From sequence record PZ452582.1: a DNA stretch of 64,000 nt; one strand, 5' to 3'. Position numbers and translations under genes: made by a program. The notes under the pieces are model-generated. The model had not been told where the DNA came from. It saw only the letters and a list, made by a program, of their open reading frames with translations, and searched no databases. Below, one piece after another: positions 40,347-46,179 of the stretch. This stretch comes from a phage. How positions within the stretch are numbered: the first letter of the stretch is position 1; every line of letters begins with the position of its first letter.

Positions 40347-41003
40347 TTATTTAGCCCTTCCTAATATTCTGGCCGCCTGAGCACATATTGATTCAAGGCG
40401 GTCATTACTTATATGATCATTTCTATACCAGTACATGGTTATCGTTCCAGCATAGATATTATCCAAATTAAAATATGGACAACTGTACATGTAGTTTATT
40501 TCGGGAGTAGGCTTTTTAGTTGGTAAAAAAGCAAATTTTGAGTCAGAATAATAATGACGTCCATTTAAATGAACTGCATATTCATCCATAGTTTTATCAA
40601 CAGGATATCCTCCAAGTGATTTTTCAGTTATTGTTGAAGGTAATCTTCCTTCGTATGCTATAATATCAACAAAATAGTTTAAGTTTTTAGGGCGGAAAGA
40701 ATACACCGCACTAAAGTCTGCCTCAGATGATATATGAACTATCTGGAGTTGTTCCAGGGCGACAGATTCAAAGCGTGCATTTCTTTCCTTTTCAATAATT
40801 TCACTGTATGTTTCATACTTTGATTGCTTATAGTACTCAAAGAAACTATCTCCCCTATACCAAACAATCGCCATCATAAATAAAAGAATTACGACAGCTA
40901 CCCGGGAAGCAAGAACTTTCCCGGTAGCGTTATCTTTGAACAAGCGATCTAGAACACCAAATAGAATATCAGAGGGCGAAAATGATATTCTAGGTGCTGC
41001 CAT
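40347..41003 (-). CDS. t: Holin gpt
   Basis: 218 aa, same as T4 holin T; single N-terminal TM then large periplasmic domain; downstream of gene 38. Confidence 0.9.
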   Translation of the reverse strand: MAAPRISFSPSDILFGVLDRLFKDNATGKVLASRVAVVILLFMMAIVWYRGDSFFEYYKQSKYETYSEIIEKERNARFESVALEQLQIVHISSEADFSAVYSFRPKNLNYFVDIIAYEGRLPSTITEKSLGGYPVDKTMDEYAVHLNGRHYYSDSKFAFLPTKKPTPEINYMYSCPYFNLDNIYAGTITMYWYRNDHISNDRLESICAQAARILGRAK

Positions 41004-41035: not shown

Positions 41036-41821
41036 TTATACTCTTGAACCATATATTGTACCAACCTTAGTCCAAGTTGGAGCATTACCAGTAACAGCTT
41101 TACCGGCCGCACCGCCGTTATATTCTGATCCTTGCCCACGAATATTACATTTACCACCTGCGGCACCAGCATCACCGCCATTACCGCCATTATAGATACC
41201 ATTGACAGACCCTTTACCAGGTGCAGAAATAGTACCAGCAGTAGCGCCCTGTTCCATATTAGCAGACCCGCCAGCAGCACCAAATGGACGACCGCCGCCA
41301 CCGCCAAAAGTCAATTTCATTTGTGAAAAAGGAGAATAATATCCGCCTCCACCGCCGCCACCGCCTCCTGCGATAACACCATTGTTGTTAATACGCAATC
41401 TAGTTCCAATTCCATTATTTATTGCAGTTCCTCCTGCTCCACCGGCAGAGTTATTTCCGCCATTCCCGCCACGGCCCCAAACATGCACGCCTGAATTGAT
41501 ATTAAGTGTCACGTATGCATTAGTTAATGAGCTAGGAAAATCTAAGCATGGAACACCAGTAGATTGAGAAACAATATTTCCTGTAATAGTAATAACAACA
41601 GGCGTGGACCCTTGTGCTTTTATCCAGTTTATTAATGTATCTTTATTATAAGAATTACTAGCACCAATGCTATAATATACTTCTTTAGATTGTCCGGCCA
41701 TTGAGCTCATCCAACCGGGAACTGAAACACGGACTGCTCTCATTGCAGCATCCATCCAACGTTGTCCAGTTTCATTCACGGCAGATTCACCAATCCAGCC
41801 AGGAACACCTACAATTGCCAT
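41036..41821 (-). CDS. 38: gp38 tail-fibre adhesin (T2/T6 type, glycine-rich motifs)
   Basis: 261 aa with poly-Gly islands (GGGGGGGGYYSP, GGNGGNNSAGGAGG); position between 37 and t. Confidence 0.8.
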   Translation of the reverse strand: MAIVGVPGWIGESAVNETGQRWMDAAMRAVRVSVPGWMSSMAGQSKEVYYSIGASNSYNKDTLINWIKAQGSTPVVITITGNIVSQSTGVPCLDFPSSLTNAYVTLNINSGVHVWGRGGNGGNNSAGGAGGTAINNGIGTRLRINNNGVIAGGGGGGGGGYYSPFSQMKLTFGGGGGRPFGAAGGSANMEQGATAGTISAPGKGSVNGIYNGGNGGDAGAAGGKCNIRGQGSEYNGGAAGKAVTGNAPTWTKVGTIYGSRV

Positions 41822-41832
41822 TAAAAATCCTT

Positions 41833-41850
41833 AGAGGGCCGAAGCCCTCT
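41833..41850 (-). other. Intercistronic RNA hairpin between genes 37 and 38
   Basis: AGAGGGC-TTCG-GCCCTCT right after gp37 stop and just before AAGGA SD of gene 38. Confidence 0.5.
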
Positions 41851-41851
41851 T

Positions 41852-44800
41852 TTACATAAGTTTAGATTCAAGTTCTTTTACACGAGAAGAAAGCGTTTTC
41901 ACAGCTTCAACCAGAAGAGCAATCTGGGCTTGAGAAGAAACAGTGAGTATTTTATTACCCTTGCTGTCTTCTGTTTCACGGACGGCTTCTGGTAAAACGT
42001 CTTGTAGCGTTTGAGCTACAATACCCGCTTCAGTTTCAATTGCCTCTCCACCGATGTATTCAGCTTTATCATAAATGACACCATTGAGTTTTTCAACTTT
42101 ATCAAGTGCATTTTCGATAGGTTTGAAATTAGATTTTAAGCGAATATCAGAACGAATATAAACGTTTGGGGCATTTATATTTTTATATGAGTACAAATCA
42201 CCATTTTGGAAACGGAAAGTCTGTACACCATTCGCATATATGTCTAATAATCCATCGCCATTTTGCTTAATACCAGTGTCATTATCGCCAAACGCTATAC
42301 TATTTCCACCAAGTGCGTTATTGATGTTAATACCAAATGAATTCATTTGATTAACACCAGCTACAGTAGCATTATTTACTACAAAGCGATTAGCTCCACC
42401 TGGTGTTTTTTCAAAGTAAGCAATATAGTTAGTTTCATCGGCAATTTCAATACGGTTACCGCGAGAAGCATCGCCAGCATGAAATATTCTCATATTTCTC
42501 GGGTTAGCACCTGATTTATCAAAGTTAATAGAACCATTATCTTTGACGTTTATGCTATTATAGAATAAAGCAGCGCTGCGAACAGCTATGCCATTATTCA
42601 TCATCACTTCGCCGGTTGTTAAGTTAATTGCGAAAGGACGTTTACTATTCCAATCGCCATTAACAGTTGCTGCGCCATCGGTGGCATTTTTATCTGTAAA
42701 CAGAATATAAAAACTACCGCCATCATTTCGTAGCATTGTAGCAACAGAACCAGTTTTATCGCTGTTGCTTCTGATACGAATACCGGTTTGGTTATTAATA
42801 GCTATTTCAGAATCGGCTTCATAACGCTTAACTTTACCGCGATCAACTAAGTTATTAAGAACATTAGCAACTTGACCATTAACTGCTGTATCTGGAAGAG
42901 CATCTACAGGTGATTGTGTAGATGAGTTAATACCAATAACACTAACAGTAGCATTTTCGGTACATGACCACTCACAAGCTAATTGATTACAATATGTTCC
43001 AGCAGAAACATAAATGTCATATGTATCTCCAGAGACGTTATTAACTGCAATATCTTTAAATGCAGCTCCAATTGTTCTTGTGTATAATGCAGCATTTAAG
43101 TCAGCAGGTCTTTCATTACTAGTACGTAAAACAATTTCAGCAATATTACATTGTGTGAATAATCCGCTATTAAATCCAGAACCTCCAACTATTTTAAAGA
43201 AGACCGTTGAAGTGGATTGTGGCATTGTTACTGTTGCAAACTTATACCATCCAGCGGTTGCTCCATAAGTAATAAATCCAGAATTAACTTTACGGTTTAA
43301 CGTGGTATTTAAATTGGCAAAGTTTCCTGAACCACTGGTAATATTACCGTCAGTTCCTAGTTGGGCATTTCCGACTTTAAGAGGCTTAGTAATATCGACA
43401 GTATCAGAGTTTAATGCAATACCATGGGAGTGAGTGTAACTATGCATACGAACGACGTTTCCGCCATCGCCAATACCTAAATACCATTTCGGAACATCTG
43501 CTTTACGTCCTTGGATGAAGTTAGAAGACTCTTGCGTTGGAGCATTTATTCTAATAGCATCTGATGCCATATTTAGTGTTATACGTTGATTAGAAGTAGT
43601 TCCAGCCACTTCTACTTTAAATCTACCGCCGCCAATATCTACATCATGATCCATGGAAACTTTACCATTACTTAATGTAATATAGAACGGACGTAAATTA
43701 GAAATGCCGCCTGATTCACCCGCATTCTGTGGGGTTGGAATAATATAAAACTTATCTTCAGAACGACGGAAAATAGCACCGTATTCAGCATTCCAAATTC
43801 TTAATGCATCAGCAGTTCCGCCGATTTTAACTTGTCCATTTACAGACAATCCATTATCAGCATTCAGGGAAGATCTTGTTGTAATAGAACCAGAAGTTAA
43901 TAAACTACCGGCCATCGCAAATTCAACAGAACCGGCAGTAGAACCTGCTGCAGGAGCAACGCGCTGTGAATAAAAATGCCAACCCTGTCCATCGCCTAAT
44001 TCAAATACAGTTTCTCTGTTTTTATTAGTGTTATCCTCAAATGCATTGCCCCATGCTTTCATGGTCACATAGCTTTTGTTCTGACCCGGGCGGGTGCCTG
44101 CGTTCCATTGTATTGTCTTAGTTCCATTTATAGAAGAAGAAGCGCCAAATTTAAGACCGGCGTTAGAAGAACTACTATTAAAGAATAACCCATTATTAAG
44201 CTTAACTTCTTGAGTAGATGCAACAGTACCATCAGCACGCAAATTTAATGAATTTGAACCAGTTTTAATATCTAAAATGCCAGGCTCAACAAGAAGTCCA
44301 TCGCCCATACTAACGGACATACGACCTGTACCACGGAAATAGTGATACATTTTAGAATTACTGCTATAACCGATATGAGTTTGACCATCACCGTTATTAT
44401 TACCATCAACATCGGTACGCGCAGTAAACATTGCTTGGTTGTTATTTGGGAAATCCCAAGTAGTACCAGAATCGCGGCTATAACCGACCATCAATTTTTT
44501 AGTACTATTAATACCATTATTAATAATAGTCGCCGCAGAAATACCGTTAGCCATTAAGTCAATAACGCCAGTACGAACCCATTTAAGTCCAGAAGCATTA
44601 TCGCCAAGAGCTAAATACCTATCTCCCATTACCCCGGTATTTCCATAATCGCTTGACGGGTATCCTTCAGTCACAGTACCAATGGCCAAGCTATTGCGGA
44701 TAATCATTCTACCGTCGTTACGAATACCGTATAGTTTAAATAACGGTATATTACCAGTCCACCAAGAAACTTCATCAGCTAGCCCAGTCTGAGCTGTACA

Positions 44801-45511
44801 AATTTCATGGTAAATAGTTCCACCTGATTTAGCTCGAACTTTACGAAGATAGTTTACACCATTTGTTTCGCCTGTGCCAGGATAAACATACTGAACTAAT
44901 GACTGCGAATCATAGGTCCCAAAAGATTTAGAATCATGATTAATTAAATTAACACTAATAGTTGGTGTACTAATAGAAGTTAAAGCAGTTAATTTGCGTG
45001 CCTGGAAGATACCGCCATCAGTAGAAATGAAATGAAATTCTGAATTTTGAGCTCCCGCAGCGGTTCCTTGACGAACACGCATTGTAATTACGCCTTCATT
45101 TTCAGACTGCGGTTTTGAATATAAAACGCCACGTTCTGAGCCATTTGTATTTTCAAACCAAAGATGGGCATTTGCAGTATCATTTATTGCTCTTGTATAA
45201 AATGAACCGGATGTTGATCTGAATACTGTAGCAGAAACAATATTACTTGCCGTAATAGTACCACTTGTAGAAAAATTTCCAAAGTTGTTTATTGGTCCAT
45301 TGACGCGTAAAGTTCCATCAATAGTTACATTTCCATTAATTTGACCGCCTTTAGCAATACCTAGATCAATGATATTTCCTGAATCATCTTTAGTAAAAAT
45401 TGTTCTATCTTTTAAGTTTATAGCCAATTCACCTTCGGCTAATACTGAAGCAGCAGGACGTGCACCTGCGGTTTTGCTTCTTTTAAATTGTATTTGTTTT
45501 AAAGTAGCCAT
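41852..45511 (-). CDS. 37: gp37 long tail fibre distal subunit
   Basis: 1219-aa ORF between 36 and 38; Gly/Ser/Thr/Asn-rich fibrous composition. Confidence 0.88.
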   Translation of the reverse strand: MATLKQIQFKRSKTAGARPAASVLAEGELAINLKDRTIFTKDDSGNIIDLGIAKGGQINGNVTIDGTLRVNGPINNFGNFSTSGTITASNIVSATVFRSTSGSFYTRAINDTANAHLWFENTNGSERGVLYSKPQSENEGVITMRVRQGTAAGAQNSEFHFISTDGGIFQARKLTALTSISTPTISVNLINHDSKSFGTYDSQSLVQYVYPGTGETNGVNYLRKVRAKSGGTIYHEICTAQTGLADEVSWWTGNIPLFKLYGIRNDGRMIIRNSLAIGTVTEGYPSSDYGNTGVMGDRYLALGDNASGLKWVRTGVIDLMANGISAATIINNGINSTKKLMVGYSRDSGTTWDFPNNNQAMFTARTDVDGNNNGDGQTHIGYSSNSKMYHYFRGTGRMSVSMGDGLLVEPGILDIKTGSNSLNLRADGTVASTQEVKLNNGLFFNSSSSNAGLKFGASSSINGTKTIQWNAGTRPGQNKSYVTMKAWGNAFEDNTNKNRETVFELGDGQGWHFYSQRVAPAAGSTAGSVEFAMAGSLLTSGSITTRSSLNADNGLSVNGQVKIGGTADALRIWNAEYGAIFRRSEDKFYIIPTPQNAGESGGISNLRPFYITLSNGKVSMDHDVDIGGGRFKVEVAGTTSNQRITLNMASDAIRINAPTQESSNFIQGRKADVPKWYLGIGDGGNVVRMHSYTHSHGIALNSDTVDITKPLKVGNAQLGTDGNITSGSGNFANLNTTLNRKVNSGFITYGATAGWYKFATVTMPQSTSTVFFKIVGGSGFNSGLFTQCNIAEIVLRTSNERPADLNAALYTRTIGAAFKDIAVNNVSGDTYDIYVSAGTYCNQLACEWSCTENATVSVIGINSSTQSPVDALPDTAVNGQVANVLNNLVDRGKVKRYEADSEIAINNQTGIRIRSNSDKTGSVATMLRNDGGSFYILFTDKNATDGAATVNGDWNSKRPFAINLTTGEVMMNNGIAVRSAALFYNSINVKDNGSINFDKSGANPRNMRIFHAGDASRGNRIEIADETNYIAYFEKTPGGANRFVVNNATVAGVNQMNSFGININNALGGNSIAFGDNDTGIKQNGDGLLDIYANGVQTFRFQNGDLYSYKNINAPNVYIRSDIRLKSNFKPIENALDKVEKLNGVIYDKAEYIGGEAIETEAGIVAQTLQDVLPEAVRETEDSKGNKILTVSSQAQIALLVEAVKTLSSRVKELESKLM

Positions 45512-45519
45512 AAGTCCTC

Positions 45520-46179
45520 TTAATAATAGCCGAAATCTTGAACAGAATCCTTAATTACGATTTGGTCAAATCGTGGAACGTGTGAAGGTTGAGATGCAGG
45601 ATTCTGCGAGAAAAAGTTTGGTGCGGTTAAGTTTCCAGTCATAGTGTCTCCTTTACGGAAAACTCTAGAATCCGCATTTGCCGTAACAGTATTTATTGCT
45701 CCATCAACATAATCTTTTCGAGTAAGGTCATTCACTGCTATAGGAGCAGCCGCATCACTTCTTACTTGACCTGATGCTGATACAACACCTTTTGTGCTAA
45801 TATCACCATTACGTGTATTAATTACAACAGTTCGGGCTGCTGAACCTTGTGATGATTTAAAACCAATACCGTACCACGAAACAATATCCATATTTGTAGT
45901 ATCATACGTGGCATTATCACCAGGACCAGCAAAAATACCATTGTCACCTGATCCTGCGCCAGGGACAGTCATCCCTTTATTAAAAATTACCTTATTTAAA
46001 TAAGTACCGCCATTAGCTTTAGAAACGAAATCGTTATCAGCCGCTTGCGGTTTATTGTATTCTGAATATATTTTAAATGATTTATAGAGTACATCGTCAC
46101 CGGCTGGATTCAATGGAAAATTTCCTTGATGCCAAATGACAGAGCCTCCAGTTGTTGAACCTACTTTTAAATCAGCCAT
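45520..46179 (-). CDS. 36: gp36 long tail fibre distal connector
   Basis: 219 aa (T4 gp36 about 221); position. Confidence 0.85.
   Translation of the reverse strand: MADLKVGSTTGGSVIWHQGNFPLNPAGDDVLYKSFKIYSEYNKPQAADNDFVSKANGGTYLNKVIFNKGMTVPGAGSGDNGIFAGPGDNATYDTTNMDIVSWYGIGFKSSQGSAARTVVINTRNGDISTKGVVSASGQVRSDAAAPIAVNDLTRKDYVDGAINTVTANADSRVFRKGDTMTGNLTAPNFFSQNPASQPSHVPRFDQIVIKDSVQDFGYY

Follow-up and report, generated by a model that had tools for sequence, protein, structure and literature searches.

The C-terminus of the long tail fibre protein gp37 of a T4-like phage: a Peptidase S74-type chaperone domain, very probably removed before gp38 docks

The last 99 residues of gp37, the distal subunit of the long tail fibre of the phage analysed here (sequence record PZ452582.1; "the window" is the entire stretch of 64,000 nucleotides, to which all nucleotide coordinates refer), form a C-terminal chaperone domain of the intramolecular type (IMC), which belongs to the Peptidase S74 family and is very probably removed before gp38 docks. 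The identity of the domain, its fold, its catalytic residues, its C-terminal position and the type of its gp38 partner come from the present analysis; how this family works, and what it does in long tail fibres of the T2 type, is already published. A sequence-only reading of the same DNA had proposed that the end of gp37 resembles the auto-cleaved chaperone domains of endosialidase-type fibres and tailspikes, and that the fibre matures by C-terminal processing and then carries gp38. That proposal is supported, save for the boundary of the domain (which is S1121, window position 42151) and for its description (the domain is alpha/beta, with a coiled-coil helix).

The phage and its tail fibre genes

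Over a 25-kb stretch around the end of gene 37 the source phage shares ~96% identity with Shigella phage Sf22 and with many Escherichia phages; it belongs to the T4-like phages, genus Tequatrovirus. The tail fibre genes are the mosaic part of this region: between 41000 and 45600, which spans genes 37 and 38, the best relative (Sf22) covers only 85%, at 94% identity. The genes concerned are:

45520-46179, minus strand: gene 36
41852-45511, minus strand: gene 37, long tail fibre distal subunit (open reading frame of 1219 aa plus stop; precursor of 130.6 kDa)
41036-41821, minus strand: gene 38, T2/T6-type tail fibre adhesin (261 aa; Pfam GP38 and Gp38_N)
40347-41003, minus strand: t holin gene

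Gp37 matches the Pfam families gp37_trimer, Gp34_trimer and Peptidase_S74, and its counterpart in the closest phages is annotated as the long tail fibre distal subunit. By Pfam, the shaft contains a Gp34_trimer-type domain in two stretches (aa 495-611) and the gp37_trimer domain (aa 652-725), the segment of aa 495-725 corresponding to window 43337-44027; modules of the proximal (gp34) and the distal fibre therefore share one protein.

The C-terminal domain of gp37

Two features define the end of the protein:

41855-42151, minus strand: C-terminal IMC domain (Peptidase S74), aa 1121-1219 (Pfam, PDB alignments, AlphaFold, Foldseek)
41858-41935, minus strand: C-terminal helix, aa 1193-1218, 26 residues with a heptad repeat (AlphaFold, pLDDT 97-98, model residues 94-119)

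The domain, with a computed mass of 10.8 kDa and a computed pI of 4.9, was compared with Peptidase S74 and IMC domains in four ways (Pfam, single-sequence and profile searches of the PDB, Foldseek) and each comparison was positive: the proposed resemblance to auto-cleaved chaperones holds by all of them. Pfam PF13884 (Peptidase_S74, "chaperone of endosialidase") matches aa 1121-1178 (window 41978-42151) with E 3e-15, scoring 56.6 bits against a gathering cutoff of 22 and aligning over model positions 1-58 of 58. Searched as a single sequence against PDB sequences, the last 200 residues of gp37 retrieve the gp37 of phage S16 (6F45, E 7e-13) and also MyRF (7DC3). A profile built on 29 aligned sequences of the last 120 residues retrieves 6F45 (1e-20), the ICA domain of MyRF (7DC3, 4e-12), the tail fibre 8JOV (9e-12) and the IMC of GA-1 (3GUD, 2e-4). 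In the alignments with 6F45, 7DC3 and 8JOV the homology runs to the last residue of gp37, which is where the domain ends; among 158 homologues examined, the domain likewise lies at most 5 residues from the C-terminus in 130.

The fold was modelled with AlphaFold as a monomer (a trimer is expected), from the last 120 residues and a 29-sequence alignment; the resulting model has a pLDDT of 92.7, with lower values (71-76) in the region preceding the predicted cleavage site. Over aa 1158-1219 it shows a strand at 1157-1164, a short helix at 1166-1172, a beta-hairpin whose arms are 1177-1181 and 1187-1191, and the long terminal helix (1193-1218). In the best heptad register of that helix, 7 of the 8 a/d positions are occupied by I, L, M or V, and it is predicted to be the core of the chaperone's trimeric coiled coil. 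When this model was searched against the PDB with Foldseek, the best 11 matches were IMC domains only (7DC3; 3GW6, the IMC of the K1F endosialidase; and 3GUD, the isolated IMC of the GA-1 neck appendage), with probabilities of 0.97-1.00 and a TM score of 0.65 for 7DC3; matches ranked below these were noise, and the structures of T5 pb1 and 8JOV were absent from the Foldseek matches to the PDB. (A technical note: a first AlphaFold model, of the last 150 residues with a shallow 9-sequence alignment, reached a pLDDT of 62 and gave no Foldseek match at E <= 0.001; it was set aside as uninformative for these two reasons.)

What had drawn attention to this end of the protein was its composition. The sequence-only reading described the last ~60 residues as helical and Gly-poor, citing a peptide (IETEAG...ESKLM) that corresponds to aa 1158-1219, window 41855-42040, and placing the feature at 41852-42060, which takes in the final 68 codons of gene 37 together with its stop codon. 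The scarcity of glycine is confirmed: with 2 Gly in 62 residues, this segment is the minimum among all 62-residue windows of gp37 (median 7); only 0.26% of them are as Gly-poor, which is beyond chance within gp37. The content of A, E, L, K, M, Q and R also peaks here (34, against a median of 19). "Helical" is half of the matter, since in the AlphaFold model some 33 of the 62 residues fall in helices but a strand and the beta-hairpin are also present; a mixed alpha/beta fold that ends in a 26-residue heptad helix is therefore not simply helical. The extent was correctly taken to the C-terminus but not far enough upstream: the compositional and structural unit starts at S1121, 37 residues before the cited peptide, and at aa 1121-1219 the domain is consequently ~37 residues longer than that peptide and ~31 longer than the 68 codons.

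The predicted cleavage site and its Ser-Lys dyad

The sequence at the start of the domain is NVYIR^SDIRLKS (the caret marks the predicted cut). Alignment with homologues places the following features around it:

42152-45511, minus strand: predicted mature gp37, aa 1-1120 (computed mass 119.8 kDa)
42152-42166, minus strand: NVYIR, last strand of the predicted mature gp37, aa 1116-1120
42149-42151, minus strand: Ser1121, predicted nucleophile, with which the released domain would begin
42134-42136, minus strand: Lys1126, predicted general base, at Ser+5 (the same spacing as in T5 pb1)

Among 159 aligned homologous domain sequences, the position of Ser1121 is Ser in 155, the Asp that follows it is Asp in 157, and the position of Lys1126 is Lys in 157 (and invariant in two further alignments); the homologous clusters share conserved positions occupied by S, D, K, G, A, Q and P. 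Ser1121 aligns with the residue at which the GA-1 IMC chain starts in 3GUD, with the Ser that follows the cut in S16 (S^SDRRIKK) and with Ser1264 of T5 pb1. By analogy, the scissile bond would be that between R1120 and S1121, and autocleavage of gp37 in this phage, as predicted by homology, would give the 119.8-kDa mature protein and an acidic fragment of 10.8 kDa. The deposited gp37 chain of 6F45 is 204 aa long, just 68-72 residues of it being modelled, which agrees with the IMC having been lost.

In T5 pb1 the dyad is Ser1264/Lys1269, the cut falls between Thr1263 and Ser1264, and the substitution S1264A blocks autoproteolysis; upstream of the dyad, Arg1250, Asp1239 and Thr1263 provide a folding sensor and oxyanion hole (PMC4690869). 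On inspection of the alignment, no counterparts of the upstream Arg and Asp, which lie in the preceding beta-helix and act as the folding sensor in the T5/K1F mechanism, could be reliably aligned in gp37, whose pre-cleavage region varies across homologues. Directly before the Ser at the site, this gp37 has Arg, S16 has Ser and T5 has Thr. The counterparts of NVYIR, the last strand before the site, have the consensus D/N-V-Y-I-R in the 159 homologues, and NVYIR aligns with DVYIR of the Yersinia fPS phages and DLNVS of S16, each lying directly before the cleavage site. This strand should form the face on which gp38 docks.

Gp38 and the proposed order of events

Gene 38, immediately downstream of gene 37, encodes a Gly-rich adhesin of the T2/T6 type: the protein matches Pfam GP38 (E 3.5e-72) and the Gp38_N attachment domain (E 8e-18), is 23% Gly, and has Trp at positions 9, 22 and 37. 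For T2 and T6, proteolytic loss of the gp37 C-terminus followed by capping with gp38 is credited to Drexler, Riede and Henning 1986 (via PMC3157838). The accounts given of S16 have its IMC autocleaved and the docking surface for gp38 thereby exposed (PMC7917993; PMC7289586), the conserved N-terminal tryptophans of gp38 inserting, as PMC7917993 describes it, into pockets of the gp37 tip that removal of the IMC exposes. Processing of the gp37 C-terminus and subsequent attachment of gp38 is the published model for T2/T6 (PMC3157838) and for S16 and its relatives (PMC7917993), and subtypes of the gp37 C-terminus pair with subtypes of the gp38 N-terminus (PMC3157838; Trojet et al. 2011).

The solved homologues suggest the following steps, in this order. 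The terminal helices of three gp37 chains would come together as a coiled coil; the IMC's alpha/beta part would nucleate the trimeric beta-structured fibre and set its register from the C-terminal end; correct folding of the trimer would position Ser1121 by Lys1126, and the activated Ser1121 would cut the R1120-S1121 bond in each chain. The 10.8-kDa domain would then dissociate, exposing a flat tip made up of three NVYIR strands, onto which the Trp-bearing N-terminal domain of gp38 would dock; gp38 would thereafter recognise the receptor.

If cleavage of gp37 in this phage rests on homology, might the S74-like domain not simply stay in place, as a permanent trimerisation cap, with gp38 binding elsewhere or serving as a mere assembly factor? 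The failure to find upstream sensor residues of the T5 pb1 type in the gp37 sequence could be read in that sense. An uncleaved cap is nonetheless very improbable: Ser1121 and Lys1126 are intact, at positions that hardly vary within the family; NVYIR corresponds to DVYIR, the docking strand in relatives; gp38 has the Gp38_N domain and the tryptophans, the equivalents of which in S16, by the published account, dock on the surface that removal of the IMC bares; and the gp37 of T2 and T6 is, according to the work cited above for them, processed.

A second alternative would follow T4 itself, in making the gp37 C-terminus the receptor-binding tip and gp38 a non-structural chaperone. A Tequatrovirus genome with the T4-like gene order 36-37-38-t would suit it, but the gp37 of T4 has a different structure, in which a C-terminal extension supplies the adhesin function (PMC3157838), whereas the C-terminus here matches Peptidase_S74 and gene 38 falls, as already noted, into the GP38 and Gp38_N families of Gly-rich adhesins. 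This arrangement is refuted by Pfam (S74 in gp37, GP38 and Gp38_N in gp38) and by Foldseek, and retains next to no probability. Nor is there any real likelihood that the tail is a generic coiled-coil or low-complexity segment, resembling chaperones by chance and having neither chaperone nor protease function: its terminal 26 residues, taken alone, are a plain and unspecific heptad helix, but the full-length Pfam match lies upstream of that helix, homologous clusters with conserved positions number 28,468, and the fold is matched specifically by IMC structures, so that Pfam, the profile search and Foldseek together refute it.

With removal of the IMC before gp38 docking as the preferred reading, one can also ask whether the domain has a further role once it is released: the freed acidic 10.8-kDa IMC trimer might time or gate the loading of gp38 by subtype, or serve a second purpose in the infected cell. 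Nothing in the present results points to such a second role, and it must be considered very improbable.

What is gained is mainly annotation: the true C-terminus of mature gp37 is placed, by prediction, at R1120, and the NVYIR strand is picked out as the predicted gp38 docking face. S1121 and K1126 are the residues to keep or to mutate when chimeric tail fibres or recombinant gp37-gp38 tips are engineered for host-range work. The IMC domain of gp37 opens no new biological question; its value lies in annotation and in engineering.

Comparison with known systems

The closest parallel with a structure is S16 (PDB 6F45; Dunne et al. 2018, via PMC7917993), in which, by that account, the same protein carries a C-terminal S74 domain with the S-D-x-R-x-K motif and is cut at DLNVS^SDRRIKK (PMC7917993); as here, the gene for the gp38 adhesin adjoins gene 37. 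The two gp37 proteins are about 28% identical over the IMC domain (113 residues in S16, 99 here), and their fibre sequences before the site are unrelated except for the last strand. T2 and T6 share with this phage the genus, the gene order and an adhesin-type gp38. The aligned motif of T6 gp37 is DVYIR-SDSRLK (NVYIR^SDIRLK here), and T6 gp37 has ~13 additional residues past the terminal helix; the IMC here is just 41% identical to that of T6 and therefore represents a different C-terminal subtype. Nearly the same junction, DVYIR^SDGRLKI, is found in Yersinia phages fPS-2, -65 and -90 (PMC7917993), whose fibre bodies differ in sequence from this gp37; cleavage of gp37 and docking of gp38 are in those phages likewise predicted, not demonstrated (PMC7917993).

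IMCs of the T5 pb1 type belong to the same family and have the same fold, the same Ser/Lys(+5) dyad, a terminal trimeric coiled coil (residues 1371-1394 of pb1, equivalent to the terminal helix of gp37; PMC4690869) and release after the trimer has folded. They differ in being longer (134 aa in T5), in bearing long beta-hairpin "tentacles", and in that the mature proteins themselves bind or degrade polysaccharide, no separate adhesin being recruited. The best structural match to the gp37 model is farther afield: the ICA domain of MyRF (7DC3; TM 0.65, probability 1.00) belongs to a eukaryotic (animal) membrane-bound protein in which cleavage frees a transcription factor and does not serve fibre maturation. 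The similarity is one of a shared domain, not of a shared role, and the sharing of this domain between phages and eukaryotes is already known.

Prevalence and exchange of the domain

An exhaustive search of representative sequences with a 120-residue query permits a glance at the prevalence of the domain: the 28,468 homologous clusters (50% identity) were found at E <= 0.001, in proteins of very varied length. In a phage collection searched by tblastn, 1715 records match the gp37 C-terminus, and 68 of these are at least 99% identical to it (Shigella phage ESh26, for example, at 100%); other matches include T6, RB49, T5-like fibres and a streptococcal prophage hyaluronidase. In some phage records the region is already labelled "chaperone of endosialidase".

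ESh26 gp37 (L001, 985-4863) is 1292 aa long as against 1219 here, yet its C-terminal 120 residues are 100% identical. An identical tip on a fibre of different length, together with the 85% coverage by Sf22, indicates that the IMC/tip module has been exchanged independently of the shaft, which is the usual mosaicism of tail fibres.

Two entries met in these searches deserve a comment on their provenance. One (P0001), a 114-aa "tail fiber domain-containing protein [Escherichia coli]" that starts MYSYKNIN... and lies on a 168,860-bp contig, looks like a T-even phage genome entered as E. coli, its gene 37 being split or truncated. Another (P0006) matches 39% of the query at 96% identity yet carries PF01594, which suggests that its short contig is chimeric or misassembled.

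Intercistronic hairpins

Two GC-rich hairpins with UUCG tetraloops occupy intercistronic gaps of the tail fibre operon:

41833-41850, minus strand: AGAGGGC-UUCG-GCCCUCU, a GC-rich stem of 7 bp and a UUCG loop
46217-46238, minus strand: GAGGGAGCC-UUCG-GGUUCCCUU, GC-rich, directly upstream of gene 36

The first of these sits between the stop codon of gene 37 and the ribosome-binding site of gene 38 (AAGGA, with the ATG at 41821). It was considered as a terminator and rejected as such: the sequence that follows it is AAGGAUUUUUAAUG, which holds the ribosome-binding site and start of gene 38, and its folding z-score is just -1.5. A scan for terminator-like sites returned 11, against 3.7 in shuffled sequences. 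Stable C(UUCG)G hairpins have long been known from the intercistronic regions of T4, and both hairpins of this tail fibre operon resemble them.
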